Shown here: one piece after another, positions 2,359 through 64,000 of the stretch
Position numbering within the stretch: position 1 is the first letter of the stretch
Layout: each line of letters starts with the position of its first letter
Assembly (NCBI GenBank): GCA_905478415.1
Contig: CAJQIG010000002.1
Location: forward strand, 186,699 to 250,698
From: an uncultured Patescibacteria group bacterium
GTDB lineage: Bacteria; Patescibacteriota; Microgenomatia; UBA1400; PJMF01
Direction of reading: 5' to 3'
DNA length: 64,000 bases
The notes under the pieces: generated by a model
Database searches by the model: none
Told to the model about the DNA's origin: nothing
What the model saw: only the letters and a program-made list of their open reading frames with translations
Made by a program: the position numbers and the translations under genes

Positions 2359-4143
2359 ATGTCAGACGCACATAACCACAATCACAACCACCTAGCAGAA
2401 CTCGAAGCTTTGGCTCAACTCCGTCACTCTGCCGCTCATTTACTTGCAGCCGCAGTACTCGAACTGTATCCTGATGCCAAACCAACTATTGGTCCAGCAA
2501 CTGATGATGGTTTTTATTACGATTTCGATTTTAGTGAGCCAATCTCAGAGAATGACTTACCTAAAATTGAGAAAAAAATGAAAGAGCTCGTCAAACATTG
2601 GCGAGAGTTTTCTCACCAAGTTGTAACTGCCGATGAAGCCCTAGAACTCTATAAAAAGAACGAATATAAGTCTGAACTTATTCGAGAATTTGCTGGAGAG
2701 AATAGAACACTCACACTCTACATGGCTGGCAATTTCACAGATCTTTGTCGAGGTGGGCACGTTGAGAGTCCTAAGAAAGAACTCAAATTTTTTAAGTTAC
2801 TCTCACTAGCTGGTGCCTATTGGCGTGGGAGCGAAGAGAACAAAATGTTGACTCGTATTTATGGAACTGCTTTCTTCAGCAAAGATGAACTCAAAGAAAA
2901 CCTGCAAATGCGAGAGGATGCAAAAGCTCGTGATCATCGAAAACTGGGTAAAGAACTAGGATTATTTGTCTTTTCGGATACTATTGGCAAAGGTCTGCCG
3001 CTTTGGACAGAAAAGGGGACAACAATCCGCCGAGAACTGGAACGCTTTATTACTGACGAAGAAATTCGTCGTGGTTATAAGCATGTGATGACTCCTGATA
3101 TTGCTAATCTTGATCTGTATCGAAAATCTGGTCACTATCCGTACTACAAGGATTCGATGTATGCGCCAATCAAAATTGAGGATGAAGAGTACATGCTTCG
3201 GCCAATGACCTGTCCACATCATTTTGAGTTATATTCTTCGGCTCCACATTCGTATCGAGAATTGCCAATGCGTATTGCCGAACTAGCTAAGTTGTACCGC
3301 TACGAGCGTTCTGGCGAACTATCTGGATTGATTCGTGTCAGAAGCTTCTGTTTAGCCGATTCTCACATCATCTGTAGCAAAGACCAAGCTAAGGCCGAAA
3401 TTAATGGTGTTCTGGACCTGATAGAGTATATTTCAAGTGTCTTTGGTCTCGAAAAAGGTAAAAACTATTCATATCGCTTGTCACTCGGTGATCGCTCAGA
3501 TGAAAAGAAGTACTTTAAGGATGACGCTTCGTGGGATTTTGCCGAAAAAGTGCTTCGTCAGGTTCTGATTGAGCGAGATGCTGTGTATGTTGAAGCCGAA
3601 GGAGAAGCTGCTTTCTACGGGCCAAAAATTGATGTGCAGATGCGTAATGTTAATGGAAAAGAAGACACAGCTTTTACGGTTCAGTACGACTTTGTTATGC
3701 CAAAGCGATTTGACCTTAAGTTTACAAATGAAGCTGGAGAGGAGGAGCAGCCAGTAGTGGTTCACAGATCTTCGATTGGTGCGATCGAGCGCAGTATTGC
3801 GTTTTTGATCGAACACTATGCCGGTAAGTTCCCGGTTTGGCTTTCGCCAACTCAGGTAAGCATCTTGCCAATTTCTGATAATTATTTGGAGTATGCCGAA
3901 GAAGTCAAAATTGCACTGGCTCGACACAATGTGCGCGTTCACCTTGATGACAGGTCGGAGCGACTCCAAGCCAAAATTCGCCATGCCCAGATGGAACAGA
4001 TTCCGTACATGCTGGTTGTCGGTGAAAAAGAAGTTGCCGATGGCACGGTGGCCGTGCGTCACCGAGACAAAAAAGAGCAGCAAGTGATGAAAATTGCCGA
4101 CTTTGTTTCCTTGGTAGTTTCTGAAATTGCTGAAAAGAAGTAA
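2359..4143 (+). CDS. thrS: Threonyl-tRNA synthetase, short form lacking the N-terminal TGS/N1 region
   Basis: 594-aa ORF. Contains the HSAAHLLA editing-domain motif, the RPMTCPHH zinc site, a class-II aaRS core and a C-terminal anticodon-binding domain (VSILPISD...). Confidence 0.97.
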   Translation: MSDAHNHNHNHLAELEALAQLRHSAAHLLAAAVLELYPDAKPTIGPATDDGFYYDFDFSEPISENDLPKIEKKMKELVKHWREFSHQVVTADEALELYKKNEYKSELIREFAGENRTLTLYMAGNFTDLCRGGHVESPKKELKFFKLLSLAGAYWRGSEENKMLTRIYGTAFFSKDELKENLQMREDAKARDHRKLGKELGLFVFSDTIGKGLPLWTEKGTTIRRELERFITDEEIRRGYKHVMTPDIANLDLYRKSGHYPYYKDSMYAPIKIEDEEYMLRPMTCPHHFELYSSAPHSYRELPMRIAELAKLYRYERSGELSGLIRVRSFCLADSHIICSKDQAKAEINGVLDLIEYISSVFGLEKGKNYSYRLSLGDRSDEKKYFKDDASWDFAEKVLRQVLIERDAVYVEAEGEAAFYGPKIDVQMRNVNGKEDTAFTVQYDFVMPKRFDLKFTNEAGEEEQPVVVHRSSIGAIERSIAFLIEHYAGKFPVWLSPTQVSILPISDNYLEYAEEVKIALARHNVRVHLDDRSERLQAKIRHAQMEQIPYMLVVGEKEVADGTVAVRHRDKKEQQVMKIADFVSLVVSEIAEKK

Positions 4144-4166
4144 CTTTTGTATAGAATTGAATAAAA

Positions 4167-4197
4167 AAGCCTCGACGCGCTGCGTCGGGGCTTTTTA
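4167..4197 (+). terminator. Rho-independent terminator of thrS
   Basis: AGCCTCGACGC pairs with GCGTCGGGGCT, followed by TTTTT, about 25 nt after the thrS stop codon. Confidence 0.8.
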
Positions 4198-4218
4198 CTG
4201 TGTACTACATAATTAAGA

Positions 4219-4249
4219 CAAAAAAACGCCAAGGTAGATCCTTGGCGTT
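4219..4249 (-). terminator. Rho-independent terminator of the minus-strand gene 4261..4584
   Basis: ACGCCAAGG pairs with CCTTGGCGT. The plus-strand A-run before it is a T-run on the minus strand. Confidence 0.75.
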
Positions 4250-4260
4250 TGACATACGTA

Positions 4261-4584
4261 TTATTGATAAAGTTGGCAGACGGCGACTTCGTCACCGATC
4301 TGCCAGGTGCAGACGCCAGTGACATCCTGGTCACTGGTCGAGACAACAAATTGTCTCAGGATAACTTCACCGTCACCGCTCGGTAGAACGGTTTTGTACA
4401 AAGTTACCGCGTTTTCAGAAACTGAAACTCCTGTTTCCTGCTCGAAGAATGTAGCAACTTGAGCCTTGTCAGGTTCGAGCTGACTGACTTGAGATAGAAT
4501 AACAACAGACCATATTCTGATTCCAATAAGAGCCAGTAGCAATACTACAATCAATCCAATCAAGAGGTCTCGTCGATTATACAT
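4261..4584 (-). CDS. Small N-terminally membrane-anchored protein, paralog 1 of a Cys-pair family
   Basis: N-terminal TM segment LLIGLIVVLLLALIGI. C-terminal TGVCTWQIGDEVAVC motif shared with the next two ORFs. Confidence 0.6.
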   Translation of the reverse strand: MYNRRDLLIGLIVVLLLALIGIRIWSVVILSQVSQLEPDKAQVATFFEQETGVSVSENAVTLYKTVLPSGDGEVILRQFVVSTSDQDVTGVCTWQIGDEVAVCQLYQ

Positions 4585-4748
4585 ATTTCTTCATCCCTTT
4601 ATCCAATTTTAAAAAAACTGGGTAAATAAATACGTTTATTAAAGAGTGGCTATTCCAACTTAAATTAAAATAATACAAGTTGAAACAACATCCTATATTA
4701 TATACAAAAATGACAAAAAGTCAAGTGAAATAAATAAAAATGACAGAG

Positions 4749-4780
4749 AAAAGCCCCAGCATGATTGCCGGGGCTTTTTA
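4749..4780. terminator. Hairpin terminator, possibly bidirectional
   Basis: AGCCCCAGC pairs with GCCGGGGCT, with T-runs on both strands. It lies directly after the stop of 4789..5211 (minus strand). Confidence 0.6.
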
Positions 4781-4788
4781 ACAAGTAA

Positions 4789-5211
4789 CTAATCATCGGT
4801 GGTACACACCATTTTTTCGCGGCGCGTACCCCAAATGCATGTACCAATAATTTTATTTCGACCTTCTACATGCACTTCGAAGTCCTGGGAACAGCTGTTG
4901 CCGCCGGTGATTTGGTGGCATGCTTGTTCTAGAAGCACAACGTTCTCAGGCTCGATACCATAATTGGTATACCTTGTCTCGTTACCTAGATAGGTAGCAA
5001 TCCTGGCTTCATTTGGCATTTGGCCAAAGTAGTTACTGACTGCGTTTGTGACAAAGAGTGTTCCTAGTAGGGCGGCCAAAATAATCGAAAGAATAAAGAG
5101 TCCAACGGCTAGATCTTGAACAAACCACTGCCAAATTTTTTGAATTTTGACTTGGCCTTTTTCAAGAGTCTTTAAAACTTTCAGTTTTAACTCATATTTT
5201 TTTTGTTTCAT
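4789..5211 (-). CDS. Small membrane-anchored protein, paralog 2 of the Cys-pair family
   Basis: TM segment LAVGLFILSIILAALLGTLFV. C-terminal IGTCIWGTRREKMVC motif. Its start overlaps the stop of the upstream paralog by 4 bp. Confidence 0.6.
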   Translation of the reverse strand: MKQKKYELKLKVLKTLEKGQVKIQKIWQWFVQDLAVGLFILSIILAALLGTLFVTNAVSNYFGQMPNEARIATYLGNETRYTNYGIEPENVVLLEQACHQITGGNSCSQDFEVHVEGRNKIIGTCIWGTRREKMVCTTDD

Positions 5212-5606
5212 GATTCCTCCAAAAAAGCTAGAACGCCAGGTTTCTGGCGTTGATTAAAATCGTCAATAAAGCACCTTGGAATCGCATAGCTTCCAGTAGT
5301 GCATACACCAGTTGAGTAAGTGTCATCGGTGAAGATGACGTCGAACTTGACTTGGCAGATTTTTTGAATAGTATTTTTTCCATCTAGTTTGCAGTGCCAG
5401 TCAGATTGAAAGGCAATATGTTTTACTAGAAGGGAAGGATTCTCTTCAATCTTTTCTAAATTCTCATTCAAAAGCAGTTCTGCTTGCTGTTCAGTCAGCG
5501 GATGGACTTCGACCAGGGTATACGATAGTAATCCTTGAAAAAGCATCCCAGTACAAAAGAGAATCAGAGCCCACATATGGGGCTCATATTTTTTGAAACG
5601 AGCCAC
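5208..5606 (-). CDS. Small membrane-anchored protein, paralog 3 of the Cys-pair family
   Basis: TM segment WALILFCTGMLFQGLL. C-terminal TGVCTTGSYAIPRC motif. ATGA overlap with the downstream paralog. Confidence 0.6.
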   Translation of the reverse strand: MARFKKYEPHMWALILFCTGMLFQGLLSYTLVEVHPLTEQQAELLLNENLEKIEENPSLLVKHIAFQSDWHCKLDGKNTIQKICQVKFDVIFTDDTYSTGVCTTGSYAIPRCFIDDFNQRQKPGVLAFLEES

Positions 5607-17742: not shown

Positions 17743-17814
17743 GCCGAAGTGGCTCAGTGGTAGAGCACCATCTTGGTAAGATGGGGGTCACGGGTTCGAT
17801 TCCCGTCTTCGGCT
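17743..17814 (+). tRNA. tRNA-Thr (anticodon GGT)
   Basis: Manual cloverleaf: acceptor GCCGAAG/CTTCGGC, anticodon loop TTGGTAA, T-arm ACGGG-TTCGATT-CCCGT. No encoded CCA. Confidence 0.9.
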
Positions 17815-17941
17815 CAGAGTGGGTAGTTAACTTGAAAAGTTGCCGATTTGCTCAAGATCAAACTATGTCGAGGTGATATAATTTGTGAAGGTTTCTGGAT
17901 GAATAGTGCAGAGATTTTGTTTTTTAATGTCTTTGAAAGAT

Positions 17942-18023
17942 GCCAGGTTACTCAAGCGGTCAACGAGGACAGACTGTAAATCTGTTGGCTCAGCCTTCGT
18001 AGGTTCGAATCCTACACCTGGCA
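17942..18023 (+). tRNA. tRNA-Tyr (anticodon GTA), class II with a long variable arm
   Basis: Acceptor GCCAGGT/ACCTGGC, anticodon loop CTGTAAA, variable arm TGGCTCAGCCTTC, T-arm GTAGG-TTCGAAT-CCTAC. Confidence 0.9.
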
Positions 18024-18041
18024 CAACTATAATAGTAAGGT

Positions 18042-18115
18042 GCCACCTTAGCTCAGTTGGTTAGAGCGACGGTTTTGTAAACCGTAGGTCCAGGGTTCGA
18101 ATCCCTGAGGTGGCT
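18042..18115 (+). tRNA. tRNA-Thr (anticodon TGT)
   Basis: Acceptor GCCACCT/AGGTGGC, anticodon loop TTTGTAA, T-arm CAGGG-TTCGAAT-CCCTG. Confidence 0.9.
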
Positions 18116-18192
18116 CAAGCATTTTGACTGGCGTATTTACGCATGGTCATTCGTTTGATATAATACCCGTCTGAAAAGAAAAGAAAGTTAGT

Positions 18193-27604: not shown

Positions 27605-27623
27605 TAGCTCTAATTCAAAACTG

Positions 27624-27694
27624 CAGGGCCAGAGGGAATCGAACCCCCGTCAAAGGTTTTGGAGACCTCTATTCTACCGCTGAACTATGGCCCT
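27624..27694 (-). tRNA. tRNA-Trp (anticodon CCA)
   Basis: Minus-strand cloverleaf: acceptor AGGGCCA/TGGCCCT, anticodon stem GAGGT/ACCTT with loop CTCCAAA, T-loop TTCGATT. No encoded CCA. Confidence 0.9.
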
Positions 27695-27808: not shown

Positions 27809-27837
27809 TTGACATAACATTAGTTATAGGATATAAT
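27809..27837 (+). promoter_or_regulatory. Consensus sigma70-type promoter
   Basis: TTGACA (27809-27814), a 17-nt spacer, then TATAAT (27832-27837). Confidence 0.75.
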
Positions 27838-27843
27838 GAAAAG

Positions 27844-28079
27844 TGTTGTGAGAGCGTACAGCAGACACTTCGTCTGCAACTACCTCGAGCAATACTGAAC
27901 CTTAACAGAATACTTACTTTTGTCTCCTTTAGACAGAAAGGACCGCGTATTTGTTGGAATCACCATAGGGTGAAACAGAGGTGTTACTCGAGAGAGTGGC
28001 GCTTGTGTTTCACTCTATTGTTTTGAGACCAGCGATTTTGTTGGTTTCCTTTTTGTTAATATTTTAAGGAGATAGAAAA
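27844..28079 (+). promoter_or_regulatory. Structured 5' leader of about 236 nt (candidate riboswitch/attenuator) upstream of 28080..28646
   Basis: Hairpins GCAGAC/GTCTGC and TGTCT/AGACA. Long-range CTCGAGCAATAC pairs with GTGTTACTCGAG. GTGAAACA/TGTTTCAC stem followed by TCTATTGTTTT. A strong Shine-Dalgarno (AAGGAG) sits only at the end. Confidence 0.45.
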
Positions 28080-28646
28080 ATGCAGGCATTCACTATTCAA
28101 ACAAATGGCGAAACAAAAAAAGGTATCCGCGTAGAACGTTTTGAAAAAACGGGAGCATATCAGATCAGCGTGCTGAAAGGCCGTCGTCCGGTTTTTGTCC
28201 CAATTTTCAAACGTAATCAGATTGTTGGAGAAGGACCTCTTGGTTACCAAATTTTGGAAGCCGGTATTTGGTCTGATTCTCAGACAGGTCGAGTAAAACT
28301 GCAAAATCCAAAAAATGATGCGTGGGAAGCCAGCCGAAACTTGGTTAGTTTGCGCGTGTATTTTGCCGAAGGAGCAGAGTTAGAAATTGCTCCGCCGGTT
28401 GATTCCGCAAGTTTGCCTCTGGCTGTGGCCTATGACCAGATGCGTAATGGCCGGCAGTATTGCGACCTAGTCGCGGTATTGAAGGCCGGCGAGAAGGTTC
28501 GTTTCATCGAGCACGCCCGTATGGGTGTCAAGGTCGTCAAGACCTTGTTGACCGATGAGAACGGAATCCCGCAACTGGTCGACGGGGATGTCCCCGAACC
28601 AGCGATGATGCAAGCCCTGGCCGAAGTCGCGGCTGCAACCAAGTAA
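28080..28646 (+). CDS. Hypothetical protein
   Basis: 188-aa ORF with AAGGAGA 7 nt upstream of the ATG. A terminator hairpin (AGGCCC...GGGGCCTTTTT) follows. No recognised motifs. Confidence 0.6.
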   Translation: MQAFTIQTNGETKKGIRVERFEKTGAYQISVLKGRRPVFVPIFKRNQIVGEGPLGYQILEAGIWSDSQTGRVKLQNPKNDAWEASRNLVSLRVYFAEGAELEIAPPVDSASLPLAVAYDQMRNGRQYCDLVAVLKAGEKVRFIEHARMGVKVVKTLLTDENGIPQLVDGDVPEPAMMQALAEVAAATK

Positions 28647-28776
28647 GTATCTGAAAAAGGAAAGGCCCTAGTTTTACACTGGGGCCTTTTTGCGTCTCAA
28701 ACCCAATCGCCACCAATCTCAAGTATTTTGTTCAAAACTAGCGTATACTACAGTTGTATCAATCTATATCACTAGT

Positions 28777-29694
28777 ATGCCAAAACCATTAGAACAAGAC
28801 CAAGTAACCAAGTTCACAACTTTGTGGCAAGGTTTCCATATCAAGAAAAATGACTCAGCTCAGGCCGCCGACCAGGCAGCTGAAGCTCTTCATGCTCTCG
28901 ATACAGAAAACTTTACCAACACAGAAGTTGCTACTGCGCATGGAGAACTTTCCAGAATAACTGCGGTCTTAGCTCTGAGTGCAGTCAAAAAAGCTAAAAA
29001 TTGGGAGGAAGCTCGTCAATATTTGCTTCTTTCCCTCGAGACAGTGCAGACAAGCTATCCAGTAGCAAAAACCTATGATCAAGCTAAAATCAGGGGAGAG
29101 TACTGGAATCCGGTGTATGGTGAAAGCTGGGCCCAGTTGAGTGCGCTCATGGATGTTCTCGAGTTGGCAAAAGTACTCGTGGTGCTGTACCCCGAAGCCG
29201 AATCGTTTGCTTATTTTAGAGCGGTTCATGAGGCTTTGTTCACAATCATTGCTGATACAGAGAAAAACCGGGAAATACTGGTTTTGATGATCAAACACGG
29301 TGAGTTTGAGTTGGCTCAAGAGGCATACCAAGAGTACCAGAGCTTGTATGGGCCAGAGTCTAAAGCTTTTAGCCCAGACCAGTGGATTACGTTAACCACC
29401 TTGATGATTGGGCAGTTCTTTGGTCACTCTCAAGTTGCAGAGGCCAGAAAGCTTTCTGGAGAACTTGGGAAGGTCTTGATACACCAGAAGGGAATGTCTT
29501 TTTTTGGGATCAGGGAGTTTTTTAAGAATATGTCACCCTCCAGAGGACAAAGACAGCTGGATTCAAAGTTGATTGGTTGGTACTCGGAAGGTGTCAAAAC
29601 TGATCCCGACGTCAGAAAACAAGTAGAAGCGCTTTTCGACCATGTCTTTGTTGGTGTGGGCGAAGAGGTTCAGTATCTCAATACTAAAGAATAA
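28777..29694 (+). CDS. Hypothetical alpha-helical protein
   Basis: ATG at 28777 (M30 of ORF 28690..29694). Helical-repeat-like composition. No recognised motifs. Confidence 0.5.
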   Translation: MPKPLEQDQVTKFTTLWQGFHIKKNDSAQAADQAAEALHALDTENFTNTEVATAHGELSRITAVLALSAVKKAKNWEEARQYLLLSLETVQTSYPVAKTYDQAKIRGEYWNPVYGESWAQLSALMDVLELAKVLVVLYPEAESFAYFRAVHEALFTIIADTEKNREILVLMIKHGEFELAQEAYQEYQSLYGPESKAFSPDQWITLTTLMIGQFFGHSQVAEARKLSGELGKVLIHQKGMSFFGIREFFKNMSPSRGQRQLDSKLIGWYSEGVKTDPDVRKQVEALFDHVFVGVGEEVQYLNTKE

Positions 29695-61916: not shown

Positions 61917-62943
61917 TCCACAACCAAAAATTTGGTTGATTCTGGTTCTATTCCTGACAGCCTTAGGGCTACTCCTTGTCTCATTGTTCATTACTACTGG
62001 CGGTTGGCAGCAAGATCAATCCTCATGGTTTGGTGAGCAACTTGAAAGTCCGGCCGAGGTGCCGAAAATAGAGCCAGAGCTTGAAATCCCTCAAGAAATA
62101 GAAAAAAGGTCAGTCACCCTTCTTTTTGGCGGAGACCTACAGTTTGATCGCTATATTCGACGCCAGGCAATGGGCCATGGAAGTTACGAATACATATTTA
62201 AAGAACTCGAATCACTCTTTGCAGAAGTTGACGGAGTTATCGCCAATCTAGAAGGGCCGGTGACCAGTTTTGATTCAGTCAGTCTCGGTTCAGTTGTTGG
62301 TAGTCGCGATAACTATATATTCACTTTCAGTCCAGAGGTTGTGCCGGTACTTAAAAATCTGGGTTTTGTGTTACTAAACCTGGGAAATAATCATATTTTA
62401 AATTTTGGTCAGGATGGCTTGGAAGAAACAAAGCAGTTGCTGGATGATGCCCAGATTGGGTATTGGGGAAATACTGGCGGCGAAACCTGGCTCGATGATT
62501 CGTTTTATTTGTACGAGCAGCATGGTGTTCAAATTTTATTTGTAAACTACAATGAATTCCTGTTTGGCGACAGAGAAGAACTGTTAGTCGAGATGCGAGT
62601 GCGTAAGGAACGACTCCAACCTGATTTTATGGTGGTCTACACTCACTGGGGGACTGAGTATCAGCAAGTTGCTAGTGAGTACTATCAGGATTTGGCTACC
62701 GAACTTGTCATAGCCGGAGCCGATATGATAATCGGTTCTCATCCACATGTGATCCAACAGCACCAGCAAATAGGCTCTGCGATGGTGTATTATTCTTTGG
62801 GGAATTTTGTATTTGATCAATATTTCGAAACAGCAGTGCGCAAGGGAACTTTGCTAAAAACAACCTTTACTGCCGGTGAAGAACTGAGTGTTTCAGAAGT
62901 GCCTATTTTCTTAGAAGGCACGGGAAAAACAGTTTTGGAGTAG
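61891..62943 (+). CDS. CapA/PGA_cap-family metallophosphatase-fold membrane-anchored protein
   Basis: N-terminal TM segment IWLILVLFLTALGLLLVSLF. LNLGNNHILNFGQDGL, VYTHWGTEY and IGSHPHV motifs. Confidence 0.8.
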   Translation: MTEHIRLANPQPKIWLILVLFLTALGLLLVSLFITTGGWQQDQSSWFGEQLESPAEVPKIEPELEIPQEIEKRSVTLLFGGDLQFDRYIRRQAMGHGSYEYIFKELESLFAEVDGVIANLEGPVTSFDSVSLGSVVGSRDNYIFTFSPEVVPVLKNLGFVLLNLGNNHILNFGQDGLEETKQLLDDAQIGYWGNTGGETWLDDSFYLYEQHGVQILFVNYNEFLFGDREELLVEMRVRKERLQPDFMVVYTHWGTEYQQVASEYYQDLATELVIAGADMIIGSHPHVIQQHQQIGSAMVYYSLGNFVFDQYFETAVRKGTLLKTTFTAGEELSVSEVPIFLEGTGKTVLE

Positions 62944-63017
62944 CAATTTGACTCTTTTTGAGCGAGTAACTTCAGACCAATTTCCTCGAGAAGCACTCTC
63001 CTTAGTGTGAAAAAGTA

Positions 63018-63046
63018 TTGACAAAGCCCATAACTAATGTTATTAT
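63018..63046 (+). promoter_or_regulatory. Near-consensus sigma70-type promoter (copy 1 of a duplicated promoter)
   Basis: TTGACA (63018-63023), a 17-nt spacer, then TATTAT (63041-63046). About 80% identical over ~45 nt to the promoter at 63648. Confidence 0.7.
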
Positions 63047-63052
63047 ACTTAT

Positions 63053-63586
63053 GTTGTTGTTTTCAACGCGCTTTTCTAAGTGTGGCTGAGAAAAACACGT
63101 ACATTAACAGACATTAGAAAAAATTCATTGTAAAACGTGAGTTTCCGGATGTCGTTAGAATTGATCAACATTGGTCTGTTCTCACGACTTCCGGAATATC
63201 TCACAAAAATGGGTGAGTGACCGGAATATATGCATCGCGCTGTAGTCGCAGCTGGATCGGTGCATCTTTACCCTCTTTTTAGAGGGCCGTTCGCCGACAA
63301 GGAAGTCGGCAGGGGTTTAGATGGGCAAATGTACCTCTTATACCAATTGCCTAGGTTGGAAGTCATCCTGTGATTAAAAACTTCCACTCTTATTCCATGT
63401 GCCTTTTTAGGCACGTCGCTCAAAGCCTGCCCGGCGAGCGACCACTCGAGGGTAGCAAGCGCAGCTACCCAACACTCAGTCCCCAAAATGGGGCCGGAAG
63501 CAATGGATTAATGACATCGCGCTGGTCATATCTAATGCTTCTGAGGGGTGTGGTTCGACTTTTGTTTCGAACCCACCCCTTTTTTT
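63053..63586 (+). ncRNA. ORF-free, hairpin-rich RNA of about 530 nt and unknown class
   Basis: Bounded by the promoter at 63018 and a 13-bp terminator. Contains at least 10 short perfect hairpins, e.g. GCCGAC/GTCGGC, GTGCCT/AGGCAC, GGGTAGC/GCTACCC, GTCGCTC/GAGCGAC. No convincing ORF or Shine-Dalgarno sequence. Confidence 0.55.
63545..63586 (+). terminator. Strong Rho-independent terminator
   Basis: GGGGTGTGGTTCGA pairs with TCGAACCCACCCC (13 bp with one bulge), followed by T7. A second hairpin, CCTCT/AGAGG with a T-run, follows at 63595-63615. Confidence 0.85.
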
Positions 63587-63647
63587 ATTTTTTCCTCTTT
63601 TATAGAGGATTTTTTGTATCTGAAATGGAGGAGAGTAGTCCCAGATA

Positions 63648-63676
63648 TTGACAAATCCCATAATATTTGTTATAAT
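63648..63676 (+). promoter_or_regulatory. Consensus sigma70-type promoter (copy 2)
   Basis: TTGACA (63648-63653), a 17-nt spacer, then TATAAT (63671-63676). Confidence 0.7.
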
Positions 63677-63682
63677 AATTGA

Positions 63683-64000
63683 TATTGTTGGGACGTTTGT
63701 TCCAACTGCACATTTACTACTTTGGCCAATCTTCAGTGAGCGGCCAATTTGGATCATGTACAACTCTAAGTACGTGGTCCATATTGGCTGTTTGCTGGAC
63801 TATGGGGATTAGCATCCCACCATAGATTCAGAGCCCACAAGCACCACCACCCCAATCTCGAAAGTGGGTGGTAAACACTTCGTCTCTAGCTCCAGAGTGA
63901 GTTTTAGAGATAGGGCAACGATCCATTCTTAGTACTTTCACCTGAAAAGATCAGGGCAACAGGCACGTTGCATAAGTACTAATGGCCGGCAAGGTAGTGC
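63683..64000 (+). ncRNA. Structured untranslated transcript running to the window edge (stable-RNA gene or rRNA leader; identity unresolved)
   Basis: No plus-strand ORF of 60 aa or more. Hairpins CTATGGGGAT/ATCCCACCATAG, ACCACCC/GGGTGGT and TTGGGA/TTCCAA. Driven by a consensus promoter. Confidence 0.4.

Follow-up and report, generated by a model that had tools for sequence, protein, structure and literature searches.

A putative large structured non-coding RNA gene, the first of a tandem pair, in a narrow clade of Patescibacteria

Introduction

Large structured non-coding RNAs of orphan function are rare and, to our knowledge, every large class so far (RNase P, tmRNA, OLE, ROOL, GOLLD and raiA) has proved unusual in its biochemistry. 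The established bacterial RNAs carry distinct hallmarks. RNase P RNAs of types A and B combine a conserved core with the P4 strands GGAAAGUCC ... ACAGAA-CCGGCUUA, while tmRNA joins a tRNA-like domain (5′ GGGG, 3′ T-arm and ACCA end) to a tag reading frame. SRP RNA is recognised by the GGAA tetraloop motif of domain IV and 6S RNA by its rod shape, about 180 nt long and interrupted by a central bubble. Sponge RNAs are typically encoded by paralogous genes arranged in tandem. Homo-oligomeric assembly of the OLE, ROOL and GOLLD kind shows itself in intermolecular kissing loops or A-minor bridges and in multimers observed by cryo-EM or on native gels. An rrn-type antitermination leader has, close to the promoter and behind a hairpin, a boxA that agrees with the one in the organism's own rRNA leaders and binds NusB/NusE. 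The genomes of Patescibacteria (CPR) measure about 1 Mb and are heavily streamlined, and CPR RNAs are often atypical. We know of no description of transcription antitermination in this phylum.

Arrays of hairpins are found in TIGR-Tas systems, whose TIGR stem-loop arrays are frequent in CPR bacteria (PMC12045711). In the loops of OLE and GOLLD RNAs, a palindrome that is retained while its sequence changes marks symmetric kissing contacts (PMC12286853). Long non-coding transcripts need BoxA, the consensus of which drifts between phyla, and boxB-boxA Nus-factor antitermination also serves CRISPR arrays (PMC7665894).

Here, we analysed 64,000 nucleotides of DNA from an uncultured Patescibacteria bacterium (the window), in which positions 63018-63615 very probably constitute a separately transcribed structured non-coding RNA of a new family (unit 1). 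Rfam does not contain this family, which is confined to a single narrow clade of Patescibacteria (CPR), and no description of these RNAs was found in the published literature.

Results

Genomic setting and transcription signals

Unit 1 is followed in tandem by a second RNA gene, and both are located between capA and a ferric-reductase-like gene. The pair is flanked by the znuABC-zur-capA operon on one side and by the ferric-reductase-like gene on the other, and the neighbouring genes encode ZnuABC, a Fur-family protein, CapA, the ferric-reductase-like protein, YchF, S6, SSB and S18. In the related loci L093, L098 and L100, about 1.2 kb separates capA from the ferric-reductase-like gene. One or more RNAs also lay directly 3′ of capA in L103, L113 and L110, whose contigs end before the next gene. 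The features of the locus, with hairpins taken from the MFE fold, are the following:

62975..62991, plus strand: upstream element GACCAATTTCCTCGAGA, about 27-43 nt 5′ of the -35 box, nearly invariant
63018..63046, plus strand: sigma-70-type promoter with extended -10, score 11/12, at the same place in L093, L098, L103 and L113
63050..63101, plus strand: 5′ hairpin H1, at the position that boxB takes in an rrn leader
63102..63111, plus strand: single-stranded leader motif CATTAACAGA, boxA-like candidate
63137..63204, plus strand: long irregular hairpin H2 of about 29 bp, including CGTGAG/CTCACG and the CCGGA boxes
63230..63494, plus strand: array of nine short hairpins, sequence unalignable to orthologs
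63230-265, 63271-286, 63287-315, 63322-353 and 63354-388, plus strand: array hairpins 1-5
63399-414, 63415-442, 63450-470 (apical loop AAGCGCA) and 63479-494, plus strand: array hairpins 6-9
63495..63543, plus strand: long 3′ hairpin H12, apical loop AUCGCGCUG, palindromic CGCG/GCGC
63544..63587, plus strand: intrinsic terminator T1, GC-rich stem of 13-14 bp, 8-nt loop and T7 run
63593..63615, plus strand: second intrinsic terminator T2, TCCTCT/AGAGGA hairpin (63593-63609) followed by T6
63648..64000, plus strand: unit 2, second RNA gene: 12/12 promoter (63648-63676), 5′ hairpin, CTGCACATTTAC motif, structured body

A preliminary description of this DNA had proposed a TTGACA-17-TATTAT promoter at 63018. 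Our scan recovered it as a sigma-70-type promoter matching 11 of 12 positions (TTGACA 63018-63023, 17-nt spacer, TATTAT 63041-63046) and added an extended -10 TG at 63038-39; transcription is predicted to start near 63053. When at most one mismatch was allowed, TTGACA-N14-TGnTATnAT occurred at three sites in the entire 64-kb window (27809, 63018 and 63648), with 0.08 expected by chance. The promoter spacer contains an unusually conserved stretch, CCCATAA. Further upstream, GACCAATTTCCTCGAGA was near-invariant in the query, L093, L098, L103 and L113 amid otherwise diverged DNA 3′ of the capA stop codon, and it could be an UP-like or operator-like site.

Predicted fold and terminators

The unit is arranged as upstream element, promoter, 5′ hairpin, single-stranded TTAA(C/A)AG, long hairpin and about 10 short GC-rich hairpins, followed by the long 3′ hairpin and two intrinsic terminators. 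Its MFE reached -212 to -214 kcal/mol, compared with -151±6 for dinucleotide shuffles (z = -10), while pieces of the flanking genes of equal length gave z = +0.7 and +0.5 in the same folding test. Similar values were obtained for the five full copies, that is, four orthologs plus the query (z between -7.5 and -10.5). The MFE fold showed 13 hairpins in unit 1 and 11-13 in the orthologs. Because the minus strand folds almost equally well (z = -8.5), the strand was assigned from promoter, terminators and G-U pairs.

Several elements of the preliminary description were confirmed at this level. The perfect hairpins that it had listed were all present (TGCATCG/CGGTGCA with one G-U pair), and the fold prediction that it had called for yielded the 13 hairpins and the excess over shuffles given above. 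The tandem terminators that it had claimed were found by scan and fold: T1 as a hairpin at 63544-63580 with T7 at 63580-63586, and T2 as a stem with T6. Taken together, promoter and terminator positions predict that the non-coding transcript is discrete and measures about 535-560 nt, close to the 534 nt or so initially proposed. T-loop-like GGTTCGA and GGTTCAATCC in T1 were not conserved as a T-arm and are located in terminator stems.

Coding capacity and known RNA families

We searched unit 1 against the 4227 families of Rfam 15 with cmscan and obtained no match at the gathering threshold or at E≤10. For the window, L001 and the ortholog loci, Rfam returned only chance matches of the microRNA hairpin type, far below gathering scores, and the five orthologous loci were negative with both Rfam 15 and ARAGORN. 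Cut-offs were E≤10 in the query, over a search space of 1-2 kb, and E≤1 in orthologs for the RNase P models. A tmRNA was rejected since ARAGORN found none in the window or in L001, Rfam RF00023 gave no match at E≤10 and both the tRNA-like end and the tag ORF were lacking; as a positive control, the Rfam tmRNA model scored 66.5 bits on the Patescibacteria tmRNA in L041. RNase P RNA was rejected on the lack of matches to RF00010/RF00011 (query E≤10, orthologs E≤1) and of the GGAAAGUCC and ACAGAA P4 strands, and it was also disfavoured by the absence or truncation of unit 1 in close relatives. SRP RNA and 6S RNA gave no Rfam match and did not fit in size or predicted fold. Likewise, membership of OLE, ROOL, GOLLD, raiA or HEARO was rejected, as no covariance model matched among all 4227 Rfam 15 families.

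ORFs of 47, 72, 93 and 95 aa overlap the interval, none of them shared in frame across species, and no SD sequence with a start codon was present in it. The initial statements that there is no credible ORF or SD sequence, and no RNase P, tmRNA or SRP signature, therefore held: no ORF was conserved across species, and Rfam 15 and ARAGORN were negative for the query and five orthologous loci. A match in Rfam and conserved small proteins, either of which had been named beforehand as evidence against a novel non-coding RNA, were both looked for and neither was found.

Conservation and covariation across relatives

With nhmmer, unit 1 was found in five further species, all from a single narrow clade of Patescibacteria (L093, L098, L103, L110 and L113), across which the promoter, the 5′ hairpin, the TTAA(C/A)AG leader motif and both terminators are kept. 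The L110 copy is devoid of promoter and 5′ half. Unit 1 was absent in L096, L097 and L100; in L096 and L097, the downstream gene directly follows capA with no RNA between them. Because it is missing or truncated in three relatives, unit 1 is dispensable, and it may be in decay in some lineages. The body evolves very fast and the query copy was alignable over its first ~60 nt only (BLAST). A covariance model of the 3′ half gave no match to the query with default filters and a weak one (9.7 bits, at the correct place) with the filters off. Since the body is unalignable, we regard the query body as orthologous on the strength of its position, leader, length, terminators and general architecture.

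Covariation exceeded that of controls in both alignments analysed. In alignment A7, 89.9% of the cells were paired and 38 of 85 pairs had changed on both sides (shuffled 16.1±3.0; slid 6-12); in A9, which includes two sequences left out of model building, the values were 84% and 29 of 50 (shuffled 12.8±2.5; slid 6-9). These numbers come from only 4-6 species, and the tested structures derive from the same or overlapping alignments, so that the contrast with slid controls is inflated. Helix 1 of A7, which corresponds to H1, had 16 pairs with 96.9% of cells paired and 5 pairs changed on both sides; all orthologs had a long hairpin where H2 stands in the query (helix 3 of A7, 8 of 22 pairs changed in this way); and the H12-equivalent helix of the orthologs showed 8 such changes in 15 pairs, its loop again containing GCGC or CGCG. 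The position of T1 was kept in all orthologs, with 10/15 pairs changed on both sides, and T2 had covarying stems in L093, L098, L103, L110 and L113. Thus, the conservation and covariation on which the preliminary description had made its proposal depend were both detected in related genomes.

Wider searches did not extend this range. A CapA profile search of genome contigs retrieved 80 Patescibacteria loci with at most 46% identity, none of them with the RNAs. A unit 2 21-mer gave two real matches among metagenome contigs, both from species already in the set, and two chance matches. No match to the RNAs was found in viral contigs or, with blastn, in phage and plasmid collections.

Repeated boxes and loop palindromes

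The repeated boxes noticed initially exist: CCGGAATAT occurs at 63191 and 63221, TTCCGGA at 63143, and CATCGCGCTG at 63233-63242 and 63515-63524. The significance given to the CCGGAAT boxes did not stand, as they merely form the two sides of a single long hairpin and other species do not conserve them. CATCGCGCTG proved to be part of a conserved feature, namely GCGC/CGCG in loops. Hairpins of the 3′ half have such palindromes in their apical loops. Four species had 2-3 hairpins of this kind per RNA; L103 and L113 had one. About nine GCGC were observed in loops, with about two expected, a modest excess in which homologous loops are not independent.

The unit, rich in hairpins, contained no periodic direct repeats. 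REP/MITE-type repeats were rejected because, within the 64-kb window, only the promoters of the two units are alike and no hairpin recurs. A TIGR array (PMC12045711) was rejected on the lack of periodicity, the short loops and the lack of a Tas (Nop-domain) gene in the 10 kb to each side. Loop GGA motifs, of which CsrB/RsmZ-type sponges should have more than five, were found in 1 of the 13 query hairpins (AAGGAA) and in none consistently among orthologs.

A boxA-like leader motif

The TTAA(C/A)AG leader motif was invariant in four species. Its form TTAACAGA occurred only twice in the window, each time 50-58 nt 3′ of a consensus promoter (two of the three such promoters). The promoter at 27809, which belongs to a protein-coding operon, is followed by the same motif. 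TTAACAGA is similar to GAACTTTAAAAAC in the 23S leader of L061. The motif agreed at 8-9 of 12-14 positions with the E. coli boxA consensus and at 11/14 positions with one 23S leader from a distant Patescibacteria member.

The neighbouring unit 2

The preliminary description had missed that another RNA gene, unit 2, follows 63018-63615 in tandem. Unit 2 runs beyond the window; in L001, its terminator lies about 218 nt further on, so that the whole gene measures about 535 nt. Unit 2 gave no Rfam match and is better conserved than unit 1 (nhmmer E between 1e-40 and 1e-45 to other species). The two units could be aligned to each other only across their promoters; they have promoter and 5′ hairpin in common and, in L093 and L098, also a CTGCAC motif. 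In species with a single RNA after capA, this RNA is unit-2-like. Downstream of the RNA in L102 and L108 lie unrelated genes of the opposite strand. Whole-molecule prediction between units 1 and 2 produced full-length duplexes without meaning. Unit 1 is probably a diverged duplicate of unit 2.

Discussion

The best overall explanation of these results, which we consider likely, is an independent gene for an untranslated structured RNA of about 540 nt that is lineage-restricted, acts in trans and is a diverged duplicate of unit 2. According to this explanation, an older and better conserved unit 2 would have been duplicated in tandem to give unit 1, which then diverged fast, and the double terminator of unit 1 would insulate the next promoter, 30 nt downstream. 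The leader, made of hairpin and motif, would act like the boxB-boxA leader of rRNA operons, recruiting Nus factors and allowing a long untranslated transcript to escape Rho termination. The mature RNA would then work in trans as a stable hairpin scaffold whose functional surface is formed by the conserved apical loops, through kissing with itself or a partner RNA or through protein binding. We propose this loop-mediated scaffold or self-association mechanism only tentatively. For a homo-oligomeric assembly like that of OLE, ROOL and GOLLD, the one indirect lead is that the GCGC/CGCG palindromes of the apical loops are kept from species to species. It is unlikely, if conceivable, that units 1 and 2 form a CPR-specific pair of large RNAs which assembles via GCGC/CGCG loops into an RNA-only or RNA-protein quaternary complex and is transcribed, like rRNA, by a Nus-factor-modified polymerase.

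Other readings of unit 1 were weighed. It could be a decaying or neutral tandem copy of unit 2 with a drifting body, serving at most as an insulator or leaving a stable by-product, and the very fast divergence (about 60 nt of the query alignable), the losses in L096, L097 and L100, the 5′ truncation in L110 and the resemblance of promoter and leader to those of unit 2 would all agree with it. However, drift should erase the folding excess, which persists in five full copies (z -7.5 to -10.5), and the stems covary while both terminators and the loop palindromes are retained across species, so that we judge this reading improbable. A string of hairpins with fast sequence turnover, GCGC/CGCG loops kept, a strong promoter and tandem paralogous genes is also what a sponge RNA of CsrB/RsmZ or 6S type would present, its repeated loop motif titrating an RNA-binding protein or RNA polymerase. 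Its probability is rather low: a single GGA loop (AAGGAA, 63287-63315) was present, as opposed to the many of CsrB-type RNAs, only 1-3 palindromic loops occurred per RNA, the Rfam 6S and CsrB models were unmatched and no 6S-like rod with a central bubble was predicted.

The location between the znuABC-zur-capA operon and the ferric-reductase-like gene, together with the conserved spacer CCCATAA, which could be an operator, would suit a hairpin-array precursor cut (e.g. by RNase III) into small RNAs, or a long cis regulatory leader for that downstream gene or a response of the pair to zinc or iron, comparable to the tandem sRNAs PrrF1-PrrF2 that neighbour Fur-regulated genes. This is quite improbable, as strong intrinsic terminators close both units before the downstream gene, that gene follows capA without any RNA in L096 and L097, the RNA of L102 and L108 precedes unrelated opposite-strand genes, and inspection revealed no conserved dyad resembling a Fur/Zur box. 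We give very little credit to a strongly divergent universal stable RNA (RNase P, tmRNA, SRP or 6S) missed by the models in CPR. Its promoter and terminator would be as expected for a stable-RNA gene, its length differs from that of RNase P RNA or tmRNA by no more than a factor of 1.5 and the host belongs to the CPR, where atypical RNAs are frequent; but the models were unmatched in six species at E≤10 over 1-2 kb, ARAGORN was negative while the tmRNA model does detect a Patescibacteria tmRNA, the GGAAAGUCC and ACAGAA P4 strands, tRNA-like end and tag ORF are lacking, and close relatives could not do with a missing or truncated copy if the RNA were essential. Finally, one or more small proteins could be suspected from the 47-, 72-, 93- and 95-aa ORFs and from the ORFs that gene callers place there in some orthologs, yet we find such coding scarcely credible. 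No ORF is common in frame across species; the sole protein-level similarity covers promoter and leader, with the frame broken by stops in the query and L093; minus-strand matches jump frames; no SD sequence precedes a start codon; and the 93-aa ORF crosses both terminators.

As an independent structured RNA gene, unit 1 matters in several respects. In a streamlined genome, one would expect two RNA genes with strong promoters to earn the 1.2 kb that they occupy. The locus provides a concrete, testable pair of large RNAs and a candidate boxA-like leader for the Patescibacteria phylum, and it illustrates a rapid turnover of structured RNA in which stems, loop motifs and transcription signals are retained. 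Interest is limited by the narrow known phylogenetic range and by the dispensability in some relatives. If the loop-assembled pair were true, it would represent a new ornate and abundant RNA class in ultra-small symbiotic bacteria, level with OLE, ROOL and GOLLD.

How the locus compares with described systems depends on the feature considered. The leader resembles the rrn boxB-boxA leader in having a strong promoter, a hairpin and then, about 50 nt into a long untranslated transcript, a short single-stranded motif rich in U and A. This motif, C(A/C/G)UUAA(C/A)AG, is like both the E. coli boxA core CUUUAACAA and the Patescibacteria 23S leader. In contrast to an rrn leader, it would head a transcript other than rRNA, which intrinsic terminators close after about 540 nt, and the same motif also follows the protein-coding operon promoter at 27809. 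As in TIGR arrays, a series of hairpins with differing stems lies in a CPR genome, whereas here there is no periodic unit and the loops, mostly of 4-9 nt, are too short for two spacers plus box C/D. Adjacent paralogous RNA genes with separate promoters and terminators recall CsrB/CsrC, RsmX/Y/Z and PrrF1/PrrF2; hairpin arrays in which stems drift and loop motifs stay recall sponge and regulatory RNAs in general; and the proximity to Fur-family regulated genes recalls PrrF. Unit 1 differs from them in having no repeated GGA loop motif, no model match and no sign of metal regulation, and it is four to five times longer than PrrF.

The likeness to OLE, ROOL and GOLLD drawn in the preliminary description is valid as an analogy, since unit 1, like these RNAs and raiA, reaches at least 500 nt with predicted transcription of its own, an unusually stable fold and no coding capacity. 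It does not extend to a shared architecture or family: there is no model, sequence or structure match, the body is far less conserved, and serial short hairpins mostly take the place of an ornate fold of multi-junction domains. Unit 1 also departs from these classes in being known so far from about six species of one clade, in forming a tandem pair and in having no link to prophages or tRNA clusters. With OLE and GOLLD, it has in common apical loops with self-complementary tetranucleotides.

Results

The transcript boundaries claimed in the preliminary description, a promoter and tandem terminators, were borne out by sequence reading, a consensus scan and the MFE fold. The signals of this RNA gene (unit 1, 63018-63615) and of the neighbouring RNA gene (unit 2) were as follows.

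62975-62991: 17-nt element GACCAATTTCCTCGAGA, 3′ of the capA stop codon and ahead of the unit 1 promoter
63018-63023 and 63041-63046 (+): unit 1 promoter, TTGACA and TATTAT with a 17-nt spacer (sequence reading of 62400-64000 and consensus scan)
63544-63580: unit 1 terminator T1, a 13-14-bp GC-rich hairpin, then T7 (MFE fold)
63593-63609: unit 1 terminator T2, a hairpin, then T6
63648-64000: unit 2, continuing on the same-species contig L001 (11758-12330; window coordinate = L001 coordinate + 51890), about 535 nt with its own terminator

A TG dinucleotide lay immediately 5′ of the unit 1 -10 box, and TTGACA-N14-TGnTATnAT (at most 1 mismatch) occurred at three sites in the 64-kb window (27809, 63018 and 63648), the chance expectation being 0.08. 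The unit 2 promoter (63648-63676, a 12/12 match) lay 30 nt past T2 and matched that of unit 1 at 83% identity across 46 nt, a stretch that takes in the spacer motif CCCATAA. GACCAATTTCCTCGAGA, possibly a UP-like element or an operator, was near-invariant in five species while the surrounding DNA had diverged. The remaining consensus extended -10 promoter (27809-27837) was followed by a hairpin, TTAACAGA (27902) and a structured leader of ~240 nt (region 27809-28079), and then by two ORFs (28080-28646 and 28690-29694), neither with a Pfam domain.

The MFE fold of 63050-63620 comprised 13 hairpins. Every hairpin listed in the preliminary description was found in unit 1, and so were its repeated boxes (CCGGAATAT at 63191 and 63221, CATCGCGCTG at 63233 and 63515). 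The MFE was -212 kcal/mol versus -151±6 for dinucleotide shuffles (z = -10), and equal-length pieces of both flanking genes gave z = +0.7 and +0.5. Since the reverse strand also folded stably (z = -8.5), the strand of unit 1 was taken from the promoter and terminators.

Relatives were represented by loci encoding CapA homologs of 46-58% identity, which we searched with nhmmer profiles. The closest CapA homologs belonged to Patescibacteria, with Pacebacteria at 57% identity. Upstream of unit 1 were znuA, znuC, znuB, a Fur-family gene and capA, and the unit 2 terminator (on L001) directly preceded the gene of a 193-aa ferric-reductase-like membrane protein.

RNA genes at the capA loci of relatives
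L093, L098, L103, L113: unit 1 and unit 2 after capA, order and place unchanged
L110: unit 2 intact; unit 1 (1897-2300) without promoter and 5′ half
L100: unit 1 absent; unit 2 and a partial tandem duplicate (4056-5216)
L102, L108: one unit-2-like RNA, ~640 and ~290 nt, respectively
L101: same promoter after capA, contig end directly beyond
L096 (3751-3788), L097 (4059-4096): ferric-reductase-like gene directly after capA; no RNA

The L102 and L108 RNAs had the same promoter, 5′ hairpin and CTGCAC(A/C)TTTA motif. In L100, the partial duplicate also copied the start of the downstream ferric-reductase-like gene (its first codons, ~60 nt), and no sigma-70 promoter was visible upstream of the first unit 2 copy. 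One RNA-less relative showed 58% CapA identity. Both units were absent from 80 more distant Patescibacteria capA loci, phage, plasmid and viral-contig collections gave no matches to the RNAs, and a unit 2 21-mer found only two real loci in JGI metagenomes, both from species already in the locus set. Given this pattern of presence and absence, the RNA family is real, its distribution is narrow, and unit 1 is dispensable. The ancestral state appears to be a single RNA gene following capA, with unit 1 added later by tandem duplication, judging from the shared promoter, 5′ hairpin and CTGCAC motif (the latter in L093 and L098).

Among the more distant loci, capA adjoined a 23S rRNA whose 550-nt leader was rich in hairpins (L061, 6977-8327) and a tmRNA on the opposite strand (L041, 6848-7274). 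L012, L014, L027, L042 and L100 were among a number of public MAG contigs titled, for example, Bdellovibrionales, Pseudomonadales or Gammaproteobacteria; their capA neighbourhoods were clearly of Patescibacteria type, which suggests that such records are mislabelled or mis-binned.

Across species, the upstream element (62975-62991) and the promoter of unit 1 were conserved, as were the 5′ hairpin and, at 63104-63110, the single-stranded motif TTAA(C/A)AG. Long hairpins were likewise conserved at the position of the irregular hairpin 63137-63204 and ahead of the terminator, and T1 and T2 were both kept, with covarying stems. The middle region was a series of short hairpins rich in G+C, numbering 11-13 per RNA, whose sequences changed fast (70-76% identity between L093 and L098), and the query copy matched other species over its first ~60 nt only. 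Every full copy kept the folding excess (z from -7.5 to -10.5). Homology searches and a count of pair changes, in line with the proposed analysis, found homologs in relatives and covariation above both controls, in tests that used few sequences and structures derived from overlapping data. Specifically, 89.9% of cells paired in the four-species alignment, where 38 of 85 pairs had changed on both sides, versus 16.1±3.0 after shuffling and 6-12 with partners slid; in a five-species alignment of the 3′ half it was 29 of 50, versus 12.8±2.5 and 6-9. The latter alignment came from a 3′-half covariance model, which was built from three species, found two species outside its building set (85 and 42 bits) and scored the query at only 9.7 bits, at the correct place with filters off.

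Unit 2 was better conserved than unit 1, with 98 RNAalifold pairs, 38 of them showing compensatory changes. Its first 318 nt folded with z = -7.4, and it had no Rfam match. It contained a 5′ hairpin, the conserved motif CTGCACATTTAC and a highly conserved 60-nt hairpin with the loop AACUCUAAG. The conserved unit 2 motif UGCACAUUUAC differed from the unit 1 leader motif; it could pair with the RNA 3′ end in L102 and L108 and was predicted to be single-stranded in the query unit 2.

Known families were sought, as had been proposed, in Rfam 15 (4227 families), and none matched unit 1. At the gathering threshold, the sole matches in the window were tRNAs outside unit 1; at E≤10, the unit 1 interval and extended locus gave only sub-threshold microRNA-like hairpin matches, and at E≤1 four orthologous loci gave no match either. 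ARAGORN found no tmRNA. These models are usable in Patescibacteria, because the Rfam tmRNA model detected the L041 tmRNA (66.5 bits). A cluster of tRNA-Thr-GGU, Tyr-GUA and Thr-UGU (17743-18116, +) and tRNA-Trp (27623-27694, -) were the only Rfam or ARAGORN matches in the window.

ORFs of 47-95 aa overlapped the interval. Tblastx and all-against-all blastp of every ORF of at least 45 aa found no conserved ORF: protein-level similarity between species was confined to the promoter and leader, where stop codons broke the frame in the query and L093, and minus-strand matches changed frame. These results support the earlier reading that unit 1 holds no credible ORF.

TTAACAGA occurred exactly twice in the window (27902 and 63104), both times on the sense strand, preceded by a hairpin and 50-58 nt 3′ of a consensus promoter (two of the window's three). 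The E. coli rrn boxA core consensus is UGCUCUUUAACAA. TTAACAGA resembles both this consensus and GAACTTTAAAAAC, which lies in the leader of the 23S rRNA after capA on the Moraniibacteriota contig L061. The hairpin and motif of unit 1 are a candidate rrn-type antitermination leader. With BoxA and Nus factors, rRNA, CRISPR arrays and other long non-coding transcripts escape Rho, and the boxA consensus varies between phyla (PMC7665894).

Discussion

The best-supported explanation is that unit 1 is a stable structured RNA, transcribed on its own and acting in trans, from a new family restricted to this lineage; it is probably a duplicate of unit 2 that has diverged. Among the rivals, a drifting or decaying duplicate carries most weight, but unit 1 has retained its folding excess, covariation and terminators. 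A protein sponge RNA comes next, against which unit 1 lacks a GGA array and matches no model. Less weight falls on a precursor, cis-regulator or metal-responsive RNA, since unit 1 is isolated by terminators and its neighbouring genes vary, and less again on a divergent housekeeping RNA, given the negative models and the dispensability of unit 1. Small proteins encoded by the interval are the weakest rival, for want of a conserved ORF. Stem arrays of the TIGR type are frequent in CPR bacteria (PMC12045711); such an array was rejected because unit 1 lacks periodicity and has short loops, and because no Tas gene lies nearby.

For a stable, trans-acting RNA, the conserved loops would be the working surface, through self-association, contact with a partner RNA or protein binding. 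A CG palindrome recurred across species in the apical loops of the 3′ half.

Palindrome-bearing apical loops, by species
Query: AAGCGCA; AUCGCGCUG
L098: AAAGCGCAC; AAUCGCGAA; AUGCGCA
L093: GCGC; AUCGCGGA; ACGCG
L110: AAUGCGCAC; CCUCGCGAA; UCUCGCGCAG
L103, L113: UAGCGCUG

Unit 1 is new at the family level, because it has no Rfam match and we found no description in the literature. It is real, comes from a phylum for which RNA biology is sparse, and as a kind can be counted among the few large orphan structured RNAs of bacteria. That the two units form a new class of assembling RNA seems unlikely. OLE and GOLLD have loops that stay palindromic despite sequence change, and these mark symmetric intermolecular kissing contacts (PMC12286853). 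Similarly, the stems under the palindromic loops of unit 1 covary while the palindrome is retained or swapped between GCGC and CGCG, and this likeness offers a lead that these loops may also act as kissing contacts.
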